Assembly: GCA_049841175.1 (NCBI GenBank)
Contig: JASGHA010000004.1
Location: 38,077-102,076 of the forward strand
Length of the DNA: 64,000 nt
Reading direction: 5' to 3'
Source of the DNA: Rubrivivax sp.
GTDB lineage: Bacteria > Pseudomonadota > Gammaproteobacteria > Burkholderiales > Burkholderiaceae_C
The position numbers were made by a program, and so were the translations under genes. The notes below the pieces were generated by a model. That model had not been told where the DNA came from, ran no database searches, and saw only the letters and a list, made by a program, of their open reading frames with translations. Shown in pieces: positions 34,801 through 44,641 of the stretch; the first letter of the stretch is position 1; the number at the start of each line of letters is the position of its first letter.

Positions 34801-35995
34801 GTGCTCAAGGAGATCGCGGTCGCCGACCTGCGGGTCGGCATGTTCGTGCACAAGATCTGCGGCTCGTGGATCGACCACCCGTTCTGGCGCACGCGCTTCG
34901 CGCTGCGCGAGGCGCAGGACGTGGACAAGCTGCGCGCCAGCGGCGTCGAGCGCCTGATCATCGACCTGGAACGCGGTGTCGACGTGCTGCCGGCGCTGGT
35001 GCCGGTCGACGAGCCGCTGCCCGACGCGACCCCCGAGCCGGCGCCGCCGCCGGAGCCGCCGCGTGTCGGCCGCGACTACGTGCAGGCCGCGGCGCTGTGC
35101 CGGCGCAGCCTGGCGCCGCTGCGTTCGCTGCACGACAGCGTGCGCCTGGGCCGCGCCGTCGCCACCGAGGCCTGCCGAGCACCTGGTCGACGAGATCGTC
35201 GACTCGGTCGAGTACGAGCCGACGCTGCTCGTCGCCGTCGCCCGGCTGAAGGCCGCCGACGAGTACCTGTACCTGCACGCGCTGGCGGTGTCGGCGCTGA
35301 TGGTCGCGCTGGGCCGCCAGATGGGGCTGCAGACACCTCAGCTGCGCGAAGCCGCGCTCGCCGGGCTGCTGCTGGACATCGGCAAGGCGCGGCTGCCGTC
35401 GGAGCTGCTGACGCGCCCGGCGCGGCTGCAAGGCGACGAACTGGCGCTGATGCGCCGCCACGCCGAGATCGGCCACGCGCTGCTGTCGCGCCTGGACGGC
35501 GTGCCGCGCAGCGTGCTGGACGCCGTGCGCCACCACCACGAGCGCCTGGACGGCAGCGGCTACCCCGACAAGTTGCGCGCCGAGGCCATTCCCGCTTTCG
35601 CGCGCATGGCCGCGGTCTGCGACGCCTACGACGCCGTGACCTCGCGCCGGCCCTATCGCGCGCCCTGGGACCCGGGGCTGGCGATGCGCCACCTGGCGCA
35701 GTCGCCGCGCGAGTTCGACGCCGTCATCGTGCAGCACTTCGTCAAGGCGGTCGGCATCTATCCGACCGGCACGCTGCTGCGGCTGAAGTCCGAGCGCCTG
35801 GCGGTCGTCGTCGGCCGCGGGGCGTCGCTGCTGACGCCGCGTGTGCGGGTCTTCTATTCGATCGACGAACGCCATGCGATCGAGCCCTTCGATCTCGACC
35901 TGTCCGACCCGCGCTGCGAGGACGCCGTCGCCGGCATCGAGCCGCCGGAGGCCTGGCGCTTCCCGGGGCTGGAGCAGCTCTGGCTGCGTGGGTGA
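34801..35995 (+). pseudogene. DUF3391/HD-GYP c-di-GMP phosphodiesterase with one apparent +1 frameshift near 35175
   Basis: VLKEIAVADLRVGMFV...WIDHPFW, then a shifted frame with HHERLDGSGYP and VCDAYDAVTSRRPY. The first HD dyad reads LLDIGK rather than LHDIGK. Confidence 0.75.
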
Positions 35996-36101
35996 TCGGC
36001 GTTTGGCGGGCAGGCCGCTCTAGCGCTGCTGCTCGCGGACGGGCTCTGACTTGCTTCGTTCGTGAACTTTGGCTGTGAGGGAAGGCCGGCGTGCGGGGGC
36101 C

Positions 36102-36210
36102 GCAGCGAGCCACGGTCGCCGGGTGGCCGGTTCCGTTCATGTCCCCCGGCCCGGCAAGCCGGGCCTCCTCCTAATACTTCACTCCACCGGCCACCCGGCG
36201 CCCGCGGCAG
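36102..36210 (-). ncRNA. Stem-loop-hairpin-loop-stem RNA element, IS110 bridge/seek-RNA-like, copy L
   Basis: Outer stem 36109-36131/36186-36208 encloses GGAGTGAAGTATTAGGAGGA-[hairpin]-GGGGGACATGAACG; the loops are identical to the copy at 40181-40279. Confidence 0.5.
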
Positions 36211-36440
36211 GGCGGTGCTGGGGCTGTTCGCTCGGGGGTGGTGGGCCTCCCCCCGAGGACGGGCGGTGGGCTTGGCGGCCATGATCGGGCGGCTCAGAAT
36301 CGTGCGCGACCGACGCCGTTTTCGGCGTCTTTTTTACGCCTGGGGAGGATCCTCGCGACGGAAATCTCAAGCGCGACAAAGGCTTGAGTTGTCGTCCAGG
36401 GTGTCTGTTACGCGAGCGTTGGATTTTTATGCGGCGTCTG

Positions 36441-36466
36441 GTTGTTGCATATAACAATAGTTAGTC
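36441..36466 (+). other. attI-like recombination site
   Basis: gttgttgcatATAACaataGTTAGTC: inverted AAC/GTT simple site directly before the first cassette. Confidence 0.65.
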
Positions 36467-36482
36467 ACCTTTTGGAGACTCT

Positions 36483-37973
36483 GTGGACTTTCTGCAGCTA
36501 GAAGAGAAACTAGCCAGCTATGGGTCTGGCGGATACTACTTAATCGAGTCCTTCCTGATAAAGCTTTTACAAGCGGAGGCAAAGTTCAGGAAGCAGGACT
36601 TCGTACACAGTTCAGGCAGCAACATCGCCACCTTCGATGCATTTGCGCCCATCGGCTTCGGCGACATCCCTGGTTCAGTATCAATTGAAATTGTTAGAAC
36701 TTTAAGTCCAAACAGGGTTATTAAAGAAGCGAGTCGCTACGCAAGTGTGGCGAAGGAGGCTAATGCAACGCTTCTAATAATATCCCTCACGAAGTTCAGC
36801 GAAGGCATACTTCCATTCATTGCGAAACATTTTCCAGTGGCCGCGAAGGTTCATCTTTGGGGCCCAAGTGAGATCCAACTCCTAATTGATCGCCATACAG
36901 AAACGGCAGAAAAGCTGGCGGAAAACCTATTTTCCAATCGCTTTAAAGTTGCACTGGAAAGCAATGCTGATGACTGGCAAAAGCAACGAGAAGGCGTTGT
37001 AAACGCCGTTCGAGATCAATACAGATCTGGTCGTTTTTCAATGTTTCTTGGCGCTGGCGTATCGAGTAGCGCTGGATTGCCAGATTGGGACACGCTCCTA
37101 AATTCCTTATTTGTGTCAATGCTCACTGATGGAGCGCCAAATGCGAAGCTTGCCGACGCCGAGCAAATCTCCAGCATTGTCAAACGGCTTAGGCAGATTG
37201 ATGGGCCGTCGGCTTTAATGTTGGCAAGATACATTCGCAAAGGAATTACAACCGACTCCCCCGCCGAGCAGGGAAAATTCATTGGTGCAGTGACAACCCA
37301 GCTTTATGGGCTCCGCAATAAAAAGCACTCAATAAGCTCAAGTCTAATCAAATCAATTGCAAGCCTTTGCGCTCCAAGCCGCACAGGTGCCAAAGTTCGT
37401 TCGGTGCTGACCTACAACTTTGATGATTTGCTTGAGCGAGAGATAAAAGCGCGAGGGCTATCTTATCGAAGCATATTTGAAGAGCTCGACCTGCCTTCGC
37501 CGGAAGAGTTGCCAATATATCATGTTCACGGCTTCCTACCAGAAGATCGATCAGCGTATGAGAACATAAACAAGGCAACACTGGTCTTCTCTGAAGAGGG
37601 GTATCACCATATTTACCGTGAAGCCTACCACTGGTCGAATTTGATTCAACTTAATAGCCTCAAAGAAACGTCATGCCTAATGGTCGGATTGTCTTTAACC
37701 GACCCAAACTTGCGCAGACTTCTAGAAATATCTGCAAAATCAATTGACAAGCCTAAGCACTTCGCTTTCATGAAGCGAATTACATATGATAGCTTTTCCA
37801 CTGAGGGGGAAAAATCCGTCGTGCGCGCCCCAGTTGGAATAGTAAGACGCTTCCTAGATAGGCACCATAAGCTTAATGAGGAGGTTCTTAGAGAGTTGGG
37901 TGTCAACATAATTTGGTACGAAAATTATGATGAAATTCCATCCATTCTCCATCAAATTGGGAAAGGTGTCTAA
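36483..37973 (+). CDS. SIR2-family protein with an N-terminal restriction-endonuclease-like domain (cassette 1)
   Basis: FLGAGVSSSAGLPDW, LTYNFDDLLE, IYHVHG, LVFSEEGY, LMVGLSLTDPNLRRLL; the stop codon overlaps the attC R'' box. Confidence 0.85.
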   Translation: MDFLQLEEKLASYGSGGYYLIESFLIKLLQAEAKFRKQDFVHSSGSNIATFDAFAPIGFGDIPGSVSIEIVRTLSPNRVIKEASRYASVAKEANATLLIISLTKFSEGILPFIAKHFPVAAKVHLWGPSEIQLLIDRHTETAEKLAENLFSNRFKVALESNADDWQKQREGVVNAVRDQYRSGRFSMFLGAGVSSSAGLPDWDTLLNSLFVSMLTDGAPNAKLADAEQISSIVKRLRQIDGPSALMLARYIRKGITTDSPAEQGKFIGAVTTQLYGLRNKKHSISSSLIKSIASLCAPSRTGAKVRSVLTYNFDDLLEREIKARGLSYRSIFEELDLPSPEELPIYHVHGFLPEDRSAYENINKATLVFSEEGYHHIYREAYHWSNLIQLNSLKETSCLMVGLSLTDPNLRRLLEISAKSIDKPKHFAFMKRITYDSFSTEGEKSVVRAPVGIVRRFLDRHHKLNEEVLRELGVNIIWYENYDEIPSILHQIGKGV

Positions 37974-38084
37974 CTGACGGTTCAACGCGGACGCCAAAAC
38001 GGGCCATCGCTTCGCGATTTTGCTGGCCCGTTTTGGTGCTCTACGCGCCTCGCGCTCCGGCGTCGGTTAACCTGGGCGTTATGC
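37968..38084 (+). other. attC site 1
   Basis: R'' GTCTAAC (37968), L'' GGTTCAAC, central inverted repeat CCAAAACGGGCCA/TGGCCCGTTTTGG, L' GGTTAACC, R' GTTATGC (38078). Confidence 0.9.
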
Positions 38085-38103
38085 GCATCGCATAAGGAAG
38101 AAC

Positions 38104-38772
38104 ATGATCGAAGATGATGATTTCGAACTGAATCGGATCATGGATGAGCTTGAGGAAGGCTCCAAGGAAATTAATGAGATTAATTCGGAATTGGAGAATT
38201 ATTTCGAATGGCTTGAGGTGCTCACTGGCCTGAATAAAATTTCAAAAAAATTTGTATCGAACATGGATTCGCTATCATCCATCCATGGATCAATTTCAGA
38301 TACCATTGACAATAGCTTTCTAATAGGAACGCTATGGTCGGGAGTTATATCTTCTTACGAAGGATTTGTGCATGACCTTTTTGATTTATTGCTTTCAAAT
38401 AGAATTCATGCGCAAGCGGCCGTAGAAGGAGCCCCAAGCCTAGATAAGGGGCTTTTGGATCAAATAAAGCTAAATAAAAACAAATATATATCCGCTGAAG
38501 ACCTCCGGTTCTTGTTCAGGAAAGCTACGCTGAGCAACCCTAACAAAGGTGCTGCACTGGCAAACCATCTATTCAAAACAAATATTCCAGAGATCGAAGA
38601 CAAAGAAATGCTAAGTGCTTTGAAAATAAGGAATGCCTACACGCACAATAATGGTGGAGTCGAAGTTTCCCTGTCATCTTTAGAGCTATTTCACGACAAA
38701 ATCGACACCGCGGTTGGTGGTTATATTAAAGAAATCTTAAATCAGGCAAATAGCCGCATATCCAAAGATTGA
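38104..38772 (+). CDS. HEPN-domain putative RNase (cassette 2)
   Basis: VISSYEGFVHDL plus an Rx4H motif RNAYTH(NNG); acidic N-terminus. Confidence 0.7.
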   Translation: MIEDDDFELNRIMDELEEGSKEINEINSELENYFEWLEVLTGLNKISKKFVSNMDSLSSIHGSISDTIDNSFLIGTLWSGVISSYEGFVHDLFDLLLSNRIHAQAAVEGAPSLDKGLLDQIKLNKNKYISAEDLRFLFRKATLSNPNKGAALANHLFKTNIPEIEDKEMLSALKIRNAYTHNNGGVEVSLSSLELFHDKIDTAVGGYIKEILNQANSRISKD

Positions 38773-38777
38773 GAGGG

Positions 38778-38864
38778 GCATAACATGGCGCTCAGCCGCG
38801 CTCCCTTCGGTCGCTGGACGCTGCGCGATAAAGCCGGGCAGCGCCGGTTAGATCTACATTAGGC
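38778..38864 (+). other. attC site 2 (R' crossover base altered)
   Basis: R'' GCATAAC is the exact complement of the cassette-start GTTATGC; ...GCTGCGCGATAAAGCCGGGCAGCGCCGGTTAGATCTAC; R' reads ATTAGGC instead of GTTAGGC. Confidence 0.88.
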
Positions 38865-38880
38865 CTCGCTATCAGTCTCC

Positions 38881-39681
38881 GTGGCTCACCATCCGCTCGT
38901 GCGCATACACCCGAACCGATGCAAGCAAGCCAAAGCGCTTCCTGCAACGCCGCGAACTTGGGCGGAACGTCATGCTCCCCTCGCCCAGGTTATCGCGGCG
39001 TACAGCACTCTTGCAGCGGTGGTTGTCGCAGGGCTCGGCTTTTGGTTCACGGTCATACCCCTTTACCAGAAGGCCGCGGTTGACGAGCAACTTGCGAAAC
39101 GTGAAGCTGAACTCAAGCAGTTGGATTCAGAACTCGCACGCGCAAGACGGGAGGCATACGAACTAGTGCGGTCCGGTCTGCTGGAACAGACTGCGATTCG
39201 TGCGTCGTTCGACTGCGCAGGTTTCTTTAGGGACGGTGGGGCAACGGCCATAGATCGCCTGTCTGAACCATTGGCGTCGTGCATTTTGAAGGCCAGCGGA
39301 TCCATCGTTGAAGCAAAGCGATTGACCGAGGGGGACAGCCAAACGCTCATGCGGGAGAGCGAGCGGTTCGTAGCGGAGTGGGAGCAACGACGCCTTGCGA
39401 CACTCGAGAAGGTCAAGGAGATTCCCAGTCGGGCATCCATCGATTCGACAATCCTTGCCGAGGAGGGGCCCCACTCCAAGCGGGTGACAGACTACTTGAC
39501 GAAGATCGAGCCCTATCTGAGCGAAGCGGATCGGCAAAGGCAAAGGCAACGTCAGTTCGAGCGCCGAGTTCGTCAAACTCAGTACCAGATGGCGTTGAAC
39601 TTCGGCACTGAACTGAGCACAGCCATGCTGAAGTTCTATCGTGCAGGCATTTGGCCCGCGGTCAAGCTCACAGCGCAGTAG
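38881..39681 (+). CDS. Hypothetical membrane-anchored coiled-coil protein (cassette 3)
   Basis: Single TM (TLAAVVVAGLGFWFTVIPLY) followed by heptad-like QLAKREAELKQLDSELARARRE; start uncertain. Confidence 0.65.
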   Translation: MAHHPLVRIHPNRCKQAKALPATPRTWAERHAPLAQVIAAYSTLAAVVVAGLGFWFTVIPLYQKAAVDEQLAKREAELKQLDSELARARREAYELVRSGLLEQTAIRASFDCAGFFRDGGATAIDRLSEPLASCILKASGSIVEAKRLTEGDSQTLMRESERFVAEWEQRRLATLEKVKEIPSRASIDSTILAEEGPHSKRVTDYLTKIEPYLSEADRQRQRQRQFERRVRQTQYQMALNFGTELSTAMLKFYRAGIWPAVKLTAQ

Positions 39682-39743
39682 CTACTCGGCGCCCACAAGG
39701 TGCGGCGAGGCCTTGTATCTTCCAAGAGACCGCAGTGAGCAGT

Positions 39744-40016
39744 GGTATCGCTCCTCGTAGTAGACTTGGCCTTGATCGGTGTACTCCTGGCCCTCGCTCA
39801 GCAGGCTGTAGATCAGCCGGGCGAGTTTGTGTGCGGCGGCCGTGACGGCTTTGGCCTTGTCCATGCGGGCGCACAAACGCCGGTAGTACGCGCCCAGCGC
39901 CGACTGGCTGGTGCGCAGCGCCTTGGCGGCGCGGTTGACCGTGGGACGGGTCTTGCCGCTCATGACCTTGCCGCCGGTGATCTTGGTGCCCGGGCACAGG
40001 CCCATCCAGGATGCGA
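39744..40016 (-). pseudogene. IS110-family transposase C-terminal remnant
   Basis: ASWMGLCPGTKITGGKVMSGKT...SALGAYYRRL...KAVTAAAHKLARLIYSLL...GQEY...YYEERY; N-terminal DEDD domain absent. Confidence 0.85.
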
Positions 40017-40180
40017 CTTCCCCTTCCCAGCGTCGGATTGCTGACTTGCACCTTCAATCCTGACGTCTCGACGTCGTGCTGGGTTGTGGGAAGTCCCTTC
40101 GTATTCCCTCCACCGACCACCCGACGCCCGCGGCAGCCAACGACAGTTGTGTGCCAGCGGTGTGCTACCAAAGCCTCGGA

Positions 40181-40279
40181 GCCGGACGTCGGGGCGTGTC
40201 CCGGAGTGAAGTATTAGGAGGAGGGCGGGCGCAGCCCGCCCGGGGGACATGAACGCAGGGACACGCCCCGGCGGCCGGC
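40181..40279 (+). ncRNA. Stem-loop-hairpin-loop-stem RNA element, IS110 bridge/seek-RNA-like, copy R
   Basis: Outer stem 40181-40202/40258-40279; same two loops as copy L, with different but paired stems. Confidence 0.5.
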
Positions 40280-40408
40280 TCTTGCGCCGTTGCTAGCGGA
40301 CGTGATCCAACGAGTTCCTTTGTGGGCTTGAGAGGCGTGAGACGGCCGGAGTGCTTCAGCAGCGGCGAGCCACGGCCGCCGGGCGGCAGCAGACGCCGCA
40401 GGGTTTAA

Positions 40409-41594
40409 GGAAGGTCTGCACAACACGCCGAGCGACCGGATCGGCGCGACATCGTTAGCGACGGCTTTGTGCAGGAGCGCATTGCGCCCCCGAGCCAGCG
40501 TTGTAGGACGGAGAAACGAAGCAAATGGCGCCCAGCGGGGGACGTTTGGCGCCCACCGGGCGCACTCATCCCCGGGCTCCCATGAGATGCCTTCGCGCCA
40601 TCCACAGGTTCGCCAGCGCGAACAGCGTCTGGATCTGCGCCGTGTTCTTGGCCAGCCCCCGGTACCGCACCTTGGTGAAGCCGAACTGCCGCTTCAGCAC
40701 GCGAAACGGGTGCTCCACCTTGGCCCGCACGCTGGCCTTGAGTTGTTCGATTCGCTCGGTGATCGCATCCTGGCGATCCCGCGCGTCGAGCAGCCGCCGC
40801 AGCCCCGGGCGCAAGGCCACGTGCCAGGTCGGCCCTCGCGCCTCGGGCCTCTTGTGCACGCCCTGGTAGCCGGCGTCGCCGAAGGCGTTGCGTTCCTCGC
40901 CATGCAGCAGTTGTCCGGCCACGTTCAGGTCGTTGACGTTCGCCGGCGTGGCCACCACCGTGTGCACCAGCCCCGAGGCCGCGTCCACCCCGATGTGCGC
41001 CTTCATCCCGAAGTACCAGTTGTTGCCCTTGCGGGTCTGCTTCATCTCCGGATCGCGCTCGCCTTCGGCGTTCTTCGTCGAGCTGGGCGCCGCGATCAGC
41101 GTCGCGTCCACCACCGTGCCGGTGCGCAGCATCAGGCCCTTGTGCTGCAGCAGATCGGCCACCAGGCGCAGCATGTCGGCCGCCAGTTCGTGGCGCTCCA
41201 GCAGGTGGCGAAACCGCAGGATCGTCGTCTCGTCGGGCAACCTCTGCGTCGCACCATCGAGCCGAGCGAACTCCCGGTACAGCGGCACGTCGTGCAGCGC
41301 CTCTTCCATCGCCGGGTCGCTCAGCCCGAACCATTGCTGCAGGTAGTGGATGCGCAGCATCGTCTCCAGCGCAAACGGCGGCCGCCCGGTCCTGGCTCGC
41401 GGATAGTGCGGCTGCACGATCTCCACCAGCGCCGCCCACGGCACCACGCGGTCCATCTCCTCGAGGAACTCGCGCTTGCGCGTCTTCTTCGTCGACAGGT
41501 TCAGGCCAAGTCCGAGCTGCTTCATGTCGGGCATCCTCGCCTGCCTACCTCGCACGGGCAAGCCGGCTTCGCGGGGGCGTTTTGCAGACCTTCC
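40409..41594 (-). mobile_element. IS5-family insertion sequence (IS5 subgroup), apparently intact
   Basis: Terminal inverted repeats GGAAGGTCTGCA(C/A)AA; TTAA target duplication at 40405-40408 and 41595-41598; 1186 bp. Confidence 0.95.
40566..41525 (-). CDS. IS5-family DDE transposase
   Basis: KTRKREFLEEM, LSDPAMEEAL, VDATLIAAPSS, YFGMKAHIGVD, GDAGYQG, RAKVEHPF. Confidence 0.95.
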   Translation of the reverse strand: MKQLGLGLNLSTKKTRKREFLEEMDRVVPWAALVEIVQPHYPRARTGRPPFALETMLRIHYLQQWFGLSDPAMEEALHDVPLYREFARLDGATQRLPDETTILRFRHLLERHELAADMLRLVADLLQHKGLMLRTGTVVDATLIAAPSSTKNAEGERDPEMKQTRKGNNWYFGMKAHIGVDAASGLVHTVVATPANVNDLNVAGQLLHGEERNAFGDAGYQGVHKRPEARGPTWHVALRPGLRRLLDARDRQDAITERIEQLKASVRAKVEHPFRVLKRQFGFTKVRYRGLAKNTAQIQTLFALANLWMARRHLMGARG

Positions 41595-41664
41595 TTAAGC
41601 CGCATAGCCGGCAGGTCGCCCTCAATCGGTGCGCGGGACCCGCCCGCAGATTGCAGAGGTGGAT

Positions 41665-42561
41665 ATGTCCTGGTCCCGGCTGAGCGCCGTCGCTCCGATC
41701 GTTTTCGACGCCGCCCCGCTGCGGGGCCGCGAAGCGCCGGCCGCCGCCGCGCTGGCCGGCGCCGTGACGCCGCCGCTGCCGACGGCCGCGGCCGCGCCGG
41801 CGGTGCAGCCGGCGATCGTCGAGCTGCCGCCGGGCGTCGCCGTCGGCGACGTGCTGAGCTTCGAGGTCGTCGAGACCGGCGCGCGGCTGCGGCTGACCGC
41901 TCGCGGCGCGATGCCCGGCTCGACCCCGCCGGGCTGGCAGCTCGACCCGCTGGCGCTGCGCCAGGTGCACGGTGCCGCAGCCGACGATGCCGCGGCGCTG
42001 GCCGTCGCCTGGCGCGCCGGCATCGCCCAGCGCCTGCGCGCCGCGGCCGGCGAGGCGCCGGGCGCGCTCGCCACGCCGCAGCCGCCGCCGGCGCCCTGGC
42101 CGGCCTCGTGGCTGGGGCTGCCGCTGGCGCTGACGATCCCGCTGCCCGACGACGGCGAAGACGCCGCGCCGCCGCCGCCCGGGCTGCGGCGCGCGCCGGC
42201 GCTGCATCTGGTCGTCGACCTGCCGCGGCTCGGGCGTGTCGCGGCGCATCTGCAGCTCGGTGTCGGCGGGCTCTGGCTGGGGCTGGCCTGCGTGCGGCGC
42301 GAGACGCTGCCGGCGCTCAAGCGCGCGCTGCCGGCGCTGGCCACCGGCCTGCGCGACGCCGGCATCGTGCTGCTGCGCTGCCGCGTGCAGGTCGGCGGCC
42401 TGGCCGCCGGCATCGGCGCGGTGCCGCTCGGTGTGCTGCCGGTGGGTTCGCTGCTGCCGCCGTCGCTGTTCGCCGCGGCGACCGAGGTCGTGCTGGCGCT
42501 GGTGCAGGCCGATGCGCGCGACGGCCTCGGCACCGAAAGGCTCAGCCGAGAGTCCCGATGA
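41665..42561 (+). CDS. Hypothetical protein with a FliK-like C-terminal domain
   Basis: ATG after GAGGTGG; Pro/Ala-rich; LHLVVDLPRLGRVAAHLQL resembles hook-length-control C-termini. Confidence 0.5.
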   Translation: MSWSRLSAVAPIVFDAAPLRGREAPAAAALAGAVTPPLPTAAAAPAVQPAIVELPPGVAVGDVLSFEVVETGARLRLTARGAMPGSTPPGWQLDPLALRQVHGAAADDAAALAVAWRAGIAQRLRAAAGEAPGALATPQPPPAPWPASWLGLPLALTIPLPDDGEDAAPPPPGLRRAPALHLVVDLPRLGRVAAHLQLGVGGLWLGLACVRRETLPALKRALPALATGLRDAGIVLLRCRVQVGGLAAGIGAVPLGVLPVGSLLPPSLFAAATEVVLALVQADARDGLGTERLSRESR

Positions 42562-44641
42562 CGCTCACTTCGCGCGACTCCGGGATCTCGTTGTACGACA
42601 GCACCGCGAGCCCCGGCGCGAACAGCCGCGCGTAGCGCGCCAGCAGCGGCCGGATCTGCGGCATCACCAGCAGCACCGGCGCGGCGGCGAGCTGCTTCAT
42701 CTGCTCCAGCACCATCGGCATGTGGGTCTGCAGCTGCGACAGCAGCTTGGGGTCGACCGGGAAGTTGTCCAGCGCGACCTTGGCGCCACCCTGGCGGGCG
42801 TTGTTCAGCGCGCCCAGCAGCAGGTTCTCCAGCTCGGCGCCGAGGCTGAAGGCGCGCATCGTCGGCCCCGGGCCGGCGATGGTGTTGACGATCTGGCGGC
42901 GCAGCGTGCAGCGCACCTCGGCGGCCAGCAGCACCGGGTCCTTGGTCGTCTCGGCGTTCTCCAGCAGCGTCGTGGCGATCGGCACGATGTCCTTGATCGA
43001 CACGTTCTCGGCCAGCAGCAGGCGCAACACCTTCAGCAGCTGGCTGTGCGTGTAGGCCTTGTCCAGCGCCGCGGCGAGCTTGGGCGCCAGCGCGCCGCAG
43101 CGTTCGATCAGCGCCGGCACGTCCTCGTGGCGCAGCAGCTCGCCGAGGTGGTCGCGCACGAGCTTGGAGACGTGCGTCGCGACGACGCCCGCCGGCTCGA
43201 CGACCTGGTAGCCCAGGCCCAGCGCGTGCGCCTTCTGCTCGGGCTCGATCCAGACCACCGGCAGCTGGTAGGCCGGCTCGATGCCGGGCACGCCGTCCAG
43301 GTCGCCGTAGGTCTGCGGCGAGGGCAGGGCCATCAGCCGGTCGGGGAAGACCTCGGCCATCGCGATCGGCGTGCCGCCCAGCAGCACCGCGTACTGCGTC
43401 GGCCGCAGCGACAGGTCGTCGCGCGCGCCCAGGCGCGGCAGCACCAGGCCGAGCTGCTCGCTCATCGTCTGGCGCACGCCCTTCAGCCGCTTGTCCAGCG
43501 GCGCGCCCTGCGCCGGGTCGACCAGCGCCGCGAGGCGGTAGCCGACGGTCACCGCCACCGGCTCGACCACCGGCAGCGTCGGCCAGTCGATCTCGGCCTC
43601 GCGCTCGGCGACCAGCGCCTGCTCGACCGCCTTGGCGGTGTCGTCGGCCGGGGCCACCACCGGGCGGCGCGCCATGCGCCAGGCGACGAAGCCCAGCACA
43701 GCGGCGAAGCCGACGAAGGTCGGCCACGGCATGCCGGGGATCGCGGCCAGCGCCAGCATCACGCCGGCGGCGCCGTAGAGCACCGGCGGCGAGGCCAGCA
43801 GCTGGCGGCCGATCTGCTGCTCGACGTCGCCCGAGTCGCTGACGCGCGTGACGATGATCGCCGCCGCCGCCGACAGCAGCAGCGCCGGGATCTGCGCCAC
43901 GAGGCCGTCGCCGATGGTCAGCAGCGCGTAGGTGCGGAAGGCCTCGGCCAGCGGCAGGCCGTGCATCCAGGCGCCGATCGCGACACCGCCGATCATGTTG
44001 ATCAGCAGGATCAGGATGCCGGCGATGGCGTCGCCGCGCACGAACTTCGACGCGCCGTCCATCGCGCCGTAGAAGTCGGCCTCCGAGCCGACCTCGCGCC
44101 GCCGCGCCTGCGCCTTCTCCTGGTTGATCAGGCCGGCGTTCAGGTCGGCGTCGATCGCCATCTGCTTGCCCGGCAGCGCGTCCAGCGTGAACCGCGCCGA
44201 AACCTCGGAGATGCGTTCGGCGCCCTTCGTCACGACGACGAAGTTGATGATCATCAGGATCACGAAGACGACGATGCCGACGACGAAGTTGCCGCCGATG
44301 ACGACGTTGCCGAAGCTCTCGATGACGCGGCCGGCGGCGTGCGTGCCCTCGTGGCCGTTGAGCAGCACGACCCGCGTCGAGGCGACGTTGAGCGTCAGCC
44401 GCATCAGCGTCGTCGTCAGGATGATCGTCGGGAAGACGGCGAAGTCCAGCGGCCGCTGCGTCGTCACCGCGACCAGCACGACGATGACCGCGAGCACGAT
44501 GTTGAACGTGAACAGCACGTCCAGCAGCAGCGGCGGCAGCGGCAGCACGACCATCGCCAGGATGGCCAGCAGGAAGGCCGGCGCGGCGAGGCGGTTGCGC
44601 TTCAGCGCGGCCAGCAGGGTCTGGGTGGGGGTGTTGCTCAT
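42542..44641 (-). CDS. flhA: Flagellar export apparatus protein FlhA
   Basis: RISEVSARFTLDALPGKQMAIDADL, FYGAMDGASKFVRGDA, LTIGDGLVAQIP. Confidence 0.97.
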   Translation of the reverse strand: MSNTPTQTLLAALKRNRLAAPAFLLAILAMVVLPLPPLLLDVLFTFNIVLAVIVVLVAVTTQRPLDFAVFPTIILTTTLMRLTLNVASTRVVLLNGHEGTHAAGRVIESFGNVVIGGNFVVGIVVFVILMIINFVVVTKGAERISEVSARFTLDALPGKQMAIDADLNAGLINQEKAQARRREVGSEADFYGAMDGASKFVRGDAIAGILILLINMIGGVAIGAWMHGLPLAEAFRTYALLTIGDGLVAQIPALLLSAAAAIIVTRVSDSGDVEQQIGRQLLASPPVLYGAAGVMLALAAIPGMPWPTFVGFAAVLGFVAWRMARRPVVAPADDTAKAVEQALVAEREAEIDWPTLPVVEPVAVTVGYRLAALVDPAQGAPLDKRLKGVRQTMSEQLGLVLPRLGARDDLSLRPTQYAVLLGGTPIAMAEVFPDRLMALPSPQTYGDLDGVPGIEPAYQLPVVWIEPEQKAHALGLGYQVVEPAGVVATHVSKLVRDHLGELLRHEDVPALIERCGALAPKLAAALDKAYTHSQLLKVLRLLLAENVSIKDIVPIATTLLENAETTKDPVLLAAEVRCTLRRQIVNTIAGPGPTMRAFSLGAELENLLLGALNNARQGGAKVALDNFPVDPKLLSQLQTHMPMVLEQMKQLAAAPVLLVMPQIRPLLARYARLFAPGLAVLSYNEIPESREVSVIGTLG

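Follow-up and report, generated by a model that had tools for sequence, protein, structure and literature searches.

A probable orphan integron platform with candidate defence cassettes in a flagellar locus of Rubrivivax

Introduction

A 64,000-nucleotide (nt) stretch of a Rubrivivax sp. genome (hereafter the window; C4:38077-102076 of a 5.45-Mb, 70 % GC genome that is 99.85 % complete) contains a flagellar locus in which the gene order from flagellin to flhA is broken by an AT-rich island. On its left lie the flagellin gene, a GT41/TPR glycosyltransferase gene and the gene of an HD-GYP protein; on its right lie a fragment of an IS110-family insertion sequence (IS), a repeat, an IS5-family element, a FliK-like gene and flhA. 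The island itself holds three open reading frames (ORFs) on one strand, encoding a SIR2 protein, a HEPN-like protein and a membrane-anchored protein (ORF3). An earlier note, made from the letters alone, had described it as an integrase-less integron array of candidate anti-phage genes inside a lateral flagellar locus.

Integrase-less cassette clusters are common in genomes, and their origin and activity are little understood. A cluster of attC sites that has no integron integrase (CALIN) has been defined as such (Cury et al. 2016, PMC4889954). The attI site lies outside this definition, and most integrons are not searched for it (PMC4889954); it is unknown for most of them, and hence is not looked for.

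Here, we describe a computational analysis of the island and its relatives. We present evidence that the stretch is an orphan integron platform, that is, an attI without its integrase followed by three cassettes, a reading to which we give a probability of roughly 0.8. Furthermore, we show that homologous attI sites are scattered over the genome, and that the same attI heads different cassettes in another strain.

Results

An attI-like site and two attC sites delimit the first two cassettes

The GC content is 43-48 % at 36.4-38.8 kb and about 58 % at 38.8-39.7 kb, compared with 70-76 % in the flanks, in keeping with the AT-rich ORFs in a GC-rich host that had been noticed from the letters. At the left of the cassettes, the attI comprises an L box (GCATATAAC, 36447-36455) and an R box (GTTAGTC, 36460-36466), with the crossover between 36460 and 36461, and it holds GTTACGC and GTTATGC repeats that resemble the integrase-binding repeats of attI1.

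To the right, attC sites were sought with a covariance model (R1) built from 15 attC sites, none of them from the studied genome; these true attC sites came from one Vibrio fluvialis array and from eight plasmid-borne class 1 integron arrays, and only the R and L stems were imposed as structure on their alignment. The whole window was scanned on both strands with filters off. The top match was attC1 (E 2e-4), and attC2 was returned at E 0.03; both have the ends proposed earlier, and attC2 also the strand. Held-out true attC sites scored 14 to 33 bits under R1 (dfrA5 32.9; a Vibrio SIR2 cassette 14), and the model also detects attC sites in other arrays of the genome. Rfam holds no attC family, and its scan of 35500-41000 returned only noise; two hand-written attC scanners produced many false matches in this 70 % GC genome and missed attC1.

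The first half of attC1 consists of an R'' box (GTCTAAC) that overlies the SIR2 stop codon, a 5-nt spacer and an L'' box (GTTCAAC) with one extra base, and the second half of an L' box (GTTAAC), a 6-nt spacer and an R' box (GTTATGC). The attC2 site begins directly after the HEPN stop codon, and its R'' box, GCATAAC, is the exact complement of GTTATGC, the start of cassette 2. A cassette start that complements the R'' box of the same cassette is the signature of a circular intermediate; the match extends over six of six bases in cassette 2 and five of six in cassette 1. The R' box of attC2 reads ATTAGGC, with an A where G is usual. A HEPN homologue in a complete integron (L068) is followed by the same 87-nt attC, which scores 19.0 bits and has GTTAGGC at this position. 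The site also resembles the attC of blaOXA-198; comparison with this attC and with the L068 homologue identified GTTAGAT (38847-38853), tried as an alternative R' box, as the L' box. By score alone attC2 is borderline, and its place, strand and homology are what settle its assignment as a predicted attC.

The core of attC2 (38781-38862) was the only part to match in dozens of groundwater metagenome contigs, whose flanks differ, with a summed depth of up to about 590. An attC of this type appears to be attached to many different environmental cassettes.

The attI-like site, both attC sites, the overlap of the SIR2 stop codon with an R'' box and the complementarity of GTTATGC and GCATAAC thus all lie where the earlier note had placed them, and the foreign-attC model recovered both attC sites with exact ends. 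The note was right about the ends of attC2, and had overlooked the G-to-A change in its R' box and the absence of an attC from cassette 3; the IS110 fragment had likewise escaped it, as had the IS5 copy and the repeats on either side. The array is a cluster of attC sites with no adjacent integrase, and is a CALIN by definition. The features of the locus are collected in Table 1.

Table 1. Positions of the platform, its cassettes and the flanking elements in the window.
Feature	Position	Strand	Basis or remarks
Repeat X, dispersed structured repeat	36009..36290	+	Genome BLAST; alignment of six loci
Repeat X core	36102-36211		Stem GGTGGCCGG...CCGGCCACC
attI	36285..36466	+	Homology to the interval separating intI_C8 from its first insert
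Terminator-like hairpin and T-run, left edge of attI module	36312..36335	+	Kept in attI copies
Cassette 1, 1618 nt	36461..38078	+	SIR2 ORF 36483-37973 (496 amino acids)
attC1, canonical, 117 nt	37968..38084	+	Model R1, 25.6 bits; fold z-score about -4
Cassette 2, 780 nt	38079..38858	+	HEPN-like ORF 38104-38772 (222 amino acids)
attC2, 87 nt	38778..38864	+	Model R1, 17.5 bits
Cassette 3, truncated	38859..39743	+	ORF3 38881-39681 (266 amino acids); attC gone
IS110-family transposase gene, internal fragment	39744..40020	-	Common to DSM 1709
Repeat X', right side	40104..40395	+	33-nt direct repeat in common with left X
IS5-family insertion sequence	40406..41597	-	Transposase 40566-41561; absent from DSM 1709

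The attI has paralogues, one of them beside an intact integrase gene

About 180 nt ending in GCATATAAC-N4-G↓TTAGTC (the arrow marks the crossover) match the region proximal to an integrase gene, intI_C8, on another contig, and five further genomic loci repeat the 360 nt on the left side of the crossover at 80-89 % identity. There are six attI copies in all, five of them without intI; the remaining one is situated between the intI_C8 start and the first insert there. The copies share the terminus GCATA(T/C)AAC-N2-4-G↓TT, past which they are unrelated, and among nine copies in two strains similarity is lost at the same G↓TT. Most copies preserve the GTT of the core together with the L box, with the flanks diverged to 80-90 %. 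The attI-like site of the earlier note is a real attI homologue and, judged by this alignment, is a paralogue of the attI beside intact IntI_C8.

In the five orphan copies, the position of intI is occupied by the dispersed repeat X, and no IntI coding remnant was found to their left. The other copies adjoin genes for HPPD, a radical SAM protein, TauE and a Liv permease. Among 61 genomes of the genus as delimited in GTDB, the attI family is present in only two.

Two of the copies have degenerate cores. Copy E (C12:34237-35930; core CTTGGGC) is followed by a gene pair of 47-53 % GC, encoding a 194-residue protein and a 356-residue GmrSD_N (DUF262) protein; the pair is another defence-like load, in which no attC is detectable. 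Copy F has a similarly altered core (ATT).

An identical 2.7-kb unit lies exactly at the G↓TT crossover of three other copies, B, C and D (C8:88158-90845; C12:205802, reverse strand; C8:725425-728110). It encodes a Xer-like tyrosine recombinase (338 residues) and an IS91-family Y2 transposase (419 residues), and its terminal hairpin, which R1 does not score, bears R''/R'-like boxes (GTCCAAC...GTTATGC). The unit may represent a cassette-like packaging of an IS or, alternatively, an IS with attI as its target.

The genome contains two intact intI genes, both above the TIGR02249 cut-off: intI_C4 (C4:19949-20896), 54 kb upstream on the window's contig, and intI_C8 (C8:724169-725113). IntI_C8 is 68 % identical to class 1 IntI1 over 305 residues. 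The array had been called integrase-less; this holds for its surroundings, where no intI adjoins attI and array as in a complete integron and the flank holds no IntI remnant, and it does not hold for the genome. With two intact IntI genes, one of them next to a homologous attI, the earlier suggestion that the array could be mobilised in trans is plausible.

A perfect LexA-box-like palindrome, TACTGTATGCGCATACAGT, was observed between intI_C4 and its attI (C4:21066-21084); inspection by eye revealed no such palindrome upstream of intI_C8.

The same attI heads different cassettes in another strain

Informative Rubrivivax gelatinosus strains came from a scan of genome contigs. Genomes listed under the same genus were tried for an empty-site comparison and set aside as too distant (HD-GYP protein at most 51 % identical, FlhA 46-48 %). 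In R. gelatinosus DSM 1709, whose HD-GYP protein is 85 % identical to that of the window, the locus is collinear with the window to 36464, after which 1.04 kb of different DNA follows. This DNA contains a small lipoprotein cassette with a 31.3-bit attC, the R'' box of which (GCCTAAC) complements the cassette start at seven of seven bases. Beyond the cassettes come the same IS110 fragment, repeat X' and the FliK-like gene, with no IS5 element between, so the IS5 element of the window arrived later. Strain IM 151 presents the empty site, in which the HD-GYP stop codon and the upstream region of the FliK-like gene are about 80 nt apart; the array does separate flagellin from flhA, as had been claimed. 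Additionally, a sediment metagenome contig (X4) carries the window's attI followed by yet other DNA.

DSM 1709 has a single IntI, 88.7 % identical to IntI_C8 and accompanied by a homologous attI, and the attC sites linked to it score 21 and 41 bits. The third cassette of this integrase-linked array and the first cassette of an orphan attI located on a different contig share 93.5 % identity over 321 nt, and both start at the same GTTATGC. This shared cassette is the best evidence that cassettes may move between an integrase-linked array and orphan platforms.

The cassettes recur elsewhere as discrete units

The reading of the ORFs as cassettes is borne out by their homologues. In V. fluvialis, a SIR2 homologue lies between attC sites: it is preceded by a 60-nt attC ending in GTTAGAT, and the R'' box of the downstream attC (ATCTAAC) overlaps its stop codon. 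A Pseudoalteromonas SIR2 homologue is preceded by a 31.5-bit attC. Recurrence of the SIR2 cassette with homology ending at core sites is seen at locus L013 and in a drinking-water metagenome contig (X1, 1963 nt); in the latter, a match of about 97 % to 36467-38081 between unrelated flanks corresponds to exactly one cassette. The breaks of homology in metagenome contigs fall at 36467, 38081 and 36462.

The HEPN cassette recurs at L068, L069 and L070, again with homology ending at core sites, and in four loci the homology starts at G↓TTAT. In L068, an 81 % identical HEPN homologue is the first cassette beside a true IntI (TIGR02249, 488 bits), and the cassettes that follow include an EcoRI restriction-modification pair. 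Finally, a homologue of cassette 3 (L071) starts after GTTAGGC, followed by GCCTAAG.

Scars, repeats and insertion sequences

The attI and attC1 both keep GTT, and cassette 1 alone is bounded by two intact sites. Recombination requires the same first base in both partner sites (PMC2811028), and attC2, with its ATT core, is therefore probably a poor recombination partner. Cassette 3 ends in a scar, in which 62 nt are followed by an internal fragment of IS110 lacking both IS ends. An insertion of IS110 into the attC of cassette 3 was considered and rejected on this account; the fragment marks a deletion scar rather than a targeted insertion.

The X sequences bracket the module, with a 33-nt direct repeat at 36180-36211 in the left X and 40104-40136 in the right X', an arrangement that fits entry by homologous recombination through X. 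Repeat X, of about 110 nt, occurs in inverted pairs (window copies 36102-36211 and 40150-40260), as three tandem units with a 333-nt period at C12:381050-382070, and in more than ten other places. No intact IS110 was seen next to the two window copies, nor did Rfam match them.

The genome also contains about ten copies of a 1.5-kb IS110/IS1111-like element with a 340-residue transposase (C4:21196-22710, C7:108032-111626, C8:95552-98602, C12:192976-203113 and C15:70476-71991), and every copy whose position was checked (C4, C7, C8, C12) lies in an integron or attI locus. The element, which starts with TACAAGGGCATCCCC, is inserted in attI_C4 and just before attC R' boxes, an insertion behaviour resembling that of the IS1111-attC group.

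The cargo consists of independent candidate defence genes

The SIR2 protein matches Pfam SIR2_2 (1.4e-17) and keeps the GAGxS, Asn (YNFD) and His (VHG) motifs when aligned to ThsA (PDB 8wc0). The ThsA matches are partial, covering the SIR2 domain only; the SLOG domain is absent, and no TIR/ThsB partner gene is present at the locus. An assignment to Thoeris was rejected on these grounds. Defence islands harbour other SIR2 homologues, as do an integrative element and a P2 prophage hotspot, and since the neighbours of these homologues are always different, SIR2 is taken as a stand-alone gene, which probably depletes NAD+ on infection.

The HEPN-like protein has a weak match to Pfam HEPN_RiboL-PSP (3e-4) and contains the Rx4H motif (RNAYTH), with R176, N177 and H181 invariant in 12 homologues; this motif is of the catalytic Rx4-6H type sought in the helical domain of a HEPN RNase. 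A two-gene system of SIR2 and HEPN was also considered and rejected, as the neighbours of SIR2 differ everywhere and HEPN occurs without SIR2. The two genes had been put forward together as cargo, and they are cassettes, independent of each other and not one system. ORF3 has no family match and one N-terminal membrane helix.

The cargo does look defence-like in its motifs, as had been suggested. For SIR2 a role in defence is somewhat more likely than not; for HEPN the balance between defence and some other role is even, and for ORF3 defence is doubtful. SIR2 and HEPN would resemble the single-gene abortive-infection effectors known from integron cassettes.

In a phage-like metagenome contig (L072, 3770-5834), a 45 % identical homologue of ORF3 lies directly after the gene of a 404-residue protein with a weak CAP12/PCTIR TIR match; these two may form a two-gene defence pair.

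The flagellar setting

The label of a lateral flagellar locus is not supported, tblastn returning a single FlhA and a single flagellin in the 99.85 % complete genome. The other attI copies lie beside unrelated housekeeping genes, and the flagellar position therefore looks incidental; the proposed link to flagella as phage receptors is probably a coincidence.

FlhA (window 42542-44641) is no closer to that of other members of the GTDB genus (46-48 % identity) than to that of the order's other families, whereas the locus shares 94 % identity with its counterpart in R. gelatinosus DSM 1709. In type, the flagellar system may differ from that of most congeners.

Discussion

We propose that the stretch is an orphan integron platform whose attI would be served from elsewhere in the genome. 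IntI_C8, acting in trans, would insert circular cassettes at the window's attI by attI x attC recombination, and cassette 1, lying between an intact attI and attC1, would still be excisable by it. Cassettes 2 and 3 would be frozen, the former by the ATT in place of GTT in attC2 and the latter by loss of its attC in the rearrangement that left the IS110 debris. The module as a whole would probably have entered the intergenic spacer by recombination through repeat X. The cargo would comprise a stand-alone SIR2 protein, a HEPN-type RNase and a membrane-anchored protein.

Several observations weigh against this reading. Two GC-rich coding matches without AAC/GTT score like attC2 under R1, and the window scan returned no attC after the third ORF. 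The ATT of attC2, a third cassette without attC and the IS fragments downstream are signs of decay, as is the mismatch between the start of cassette 1 and its own R'' box. No sigma-70-like promoter was detected in the attI module, and a search for RNA-seq runs that cover the locus came back empty. At the locus of IntI_C8 itself the model detects no attC in the studied genome, and that locus is accordingly In0-like. In copies E and F the core is degenerate (CTT and ATT, respectively) and no attC is detectable, so some platforms may be fossils. With respect to the cargo, PADLOC reported no complete known defence system, and the Pfam match of the HEPN-like protein is below the gathering score (21.1 versus 28.4 bits).

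Part of this evidence, together with the X direct repeats that bracket the module and the IS110 and IS5 debris, is what would be expected of an inert relic, namely a piece of one of the resident integrons, attI included, that was translocated once by way of repeats or ISs and has since only decayed, unused by any integrase; the mutated R' box of attC2, the missing third attC and the degenerate cores of E and F all fit. We consider this unlikely. A relic would not be expected to head different cassettes from the same attI at the same locus in DSM 1709, or different DNA in the sediment metagenome contig, nor to share a cassette with an IntI-linked array, as the orphan attI of DSM 1709 does; moreover, most copies retain the core GTT and the L box, although the flanks have diverged to 80-90 %.

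Integron integrases are documented to insert cassettes at secondary sites of the genome (attG-type, GWT consensus), a route by which small CALINs may originate (bioRxiv 10.1101/2022.09.11.507474). The sequence upstream of the cassettes would then not be an attI. This is very improbable here, as about 180 nt upstream show homology both to the sequence beside intI_C8 and to eight further copies with the same G↓TT end, and attG sites are without such extended common sequence (bioRxiv 10.1101/2022.09.11.507474). Least credible of all is that the six sites are docking sites for the Xer-like recombinase of the 2.7-kb IS91-family unit and not for IntI: identical units do occupy the precise crossover point of copies B, C and D, but at that very point classical cassettes bounded by attC are present in the window, DSM 1709 and L064; the site has L and R boxes together with GTTA repeats, as an attI does, and in two strains it lies next to intI, the place expected of attI.

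If the orphan-platform reading is correct, one recombinase elsewhere probably serves several scattered gene-capture sites. Extending this, it is conceivable, at somewhat less than even odds, that R. gelatinosus and its close relatives run a distributed integron, in which a class-1-like IntI serves several attI platforms (six in the studied genome and at least four in DSM 1709) and cassettes move between them. The platforms, situated beside unrelated housekeeping genes, would have been spread by recombination through the dispersed repeat, and each would capture strain-specific cassettes. Were this true, integrase and insertion site would be separable, and many CALINs could be live satellite platforms and not debris.

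The locus offers a clean natural case, comprising an orphan attI with cassettes that differ between strains, a strain with the empty site, a shared cassette and an identifiable cognate integrase, and it makes testable whether a single integron integrase services multiple attI sites spread over a genome. A further gain is a set of three compact cassettes that are candidates for defence (SIR2, HEPN and a membrane protein). The literature searched yielded no set of paralogous attI platforms that lack an integrase and head strain-variable arrays.

Phage-defence cassettes in integrons have already been described (bioRxiv 10.1101/2024.07.02.601719; PMC12614218). The window resembles them in carrying small, single-gene candidate defence cassettes in the first array positions, and differs in that its three candidate genes match no complete PADLOC system. 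The SIR2 protein shares with Thoeris ThsA, a SIR2 NADase, the SIR2 domain with its GAGxS, Asn and His motifs; unlike ThsA, it has an N-terminal second domain unrelated to SLOG, and it lacks a ThsB. As in attG insertion, the cassettes lie outside a complete integron, but their target is an extended, conserved attI paralogue and not a bare GWT site.

Among CALINs, the array is typical in having at least two attC sites, no intI within several kb, ISs nearby and an IntI elsewhere in the genome; it is set apart by an attI paralogous to that of the resident integron and by being one of several platforms. Finally, the attC architecture, the G↓TT boundaries and an attI with L and R boxes and GTTA repeats are shared with sedentary chromosomal and class 1 integrons. 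In contrast to these, intI and attI are here uncoupled, and in five attI copies a repeat replaces intI.

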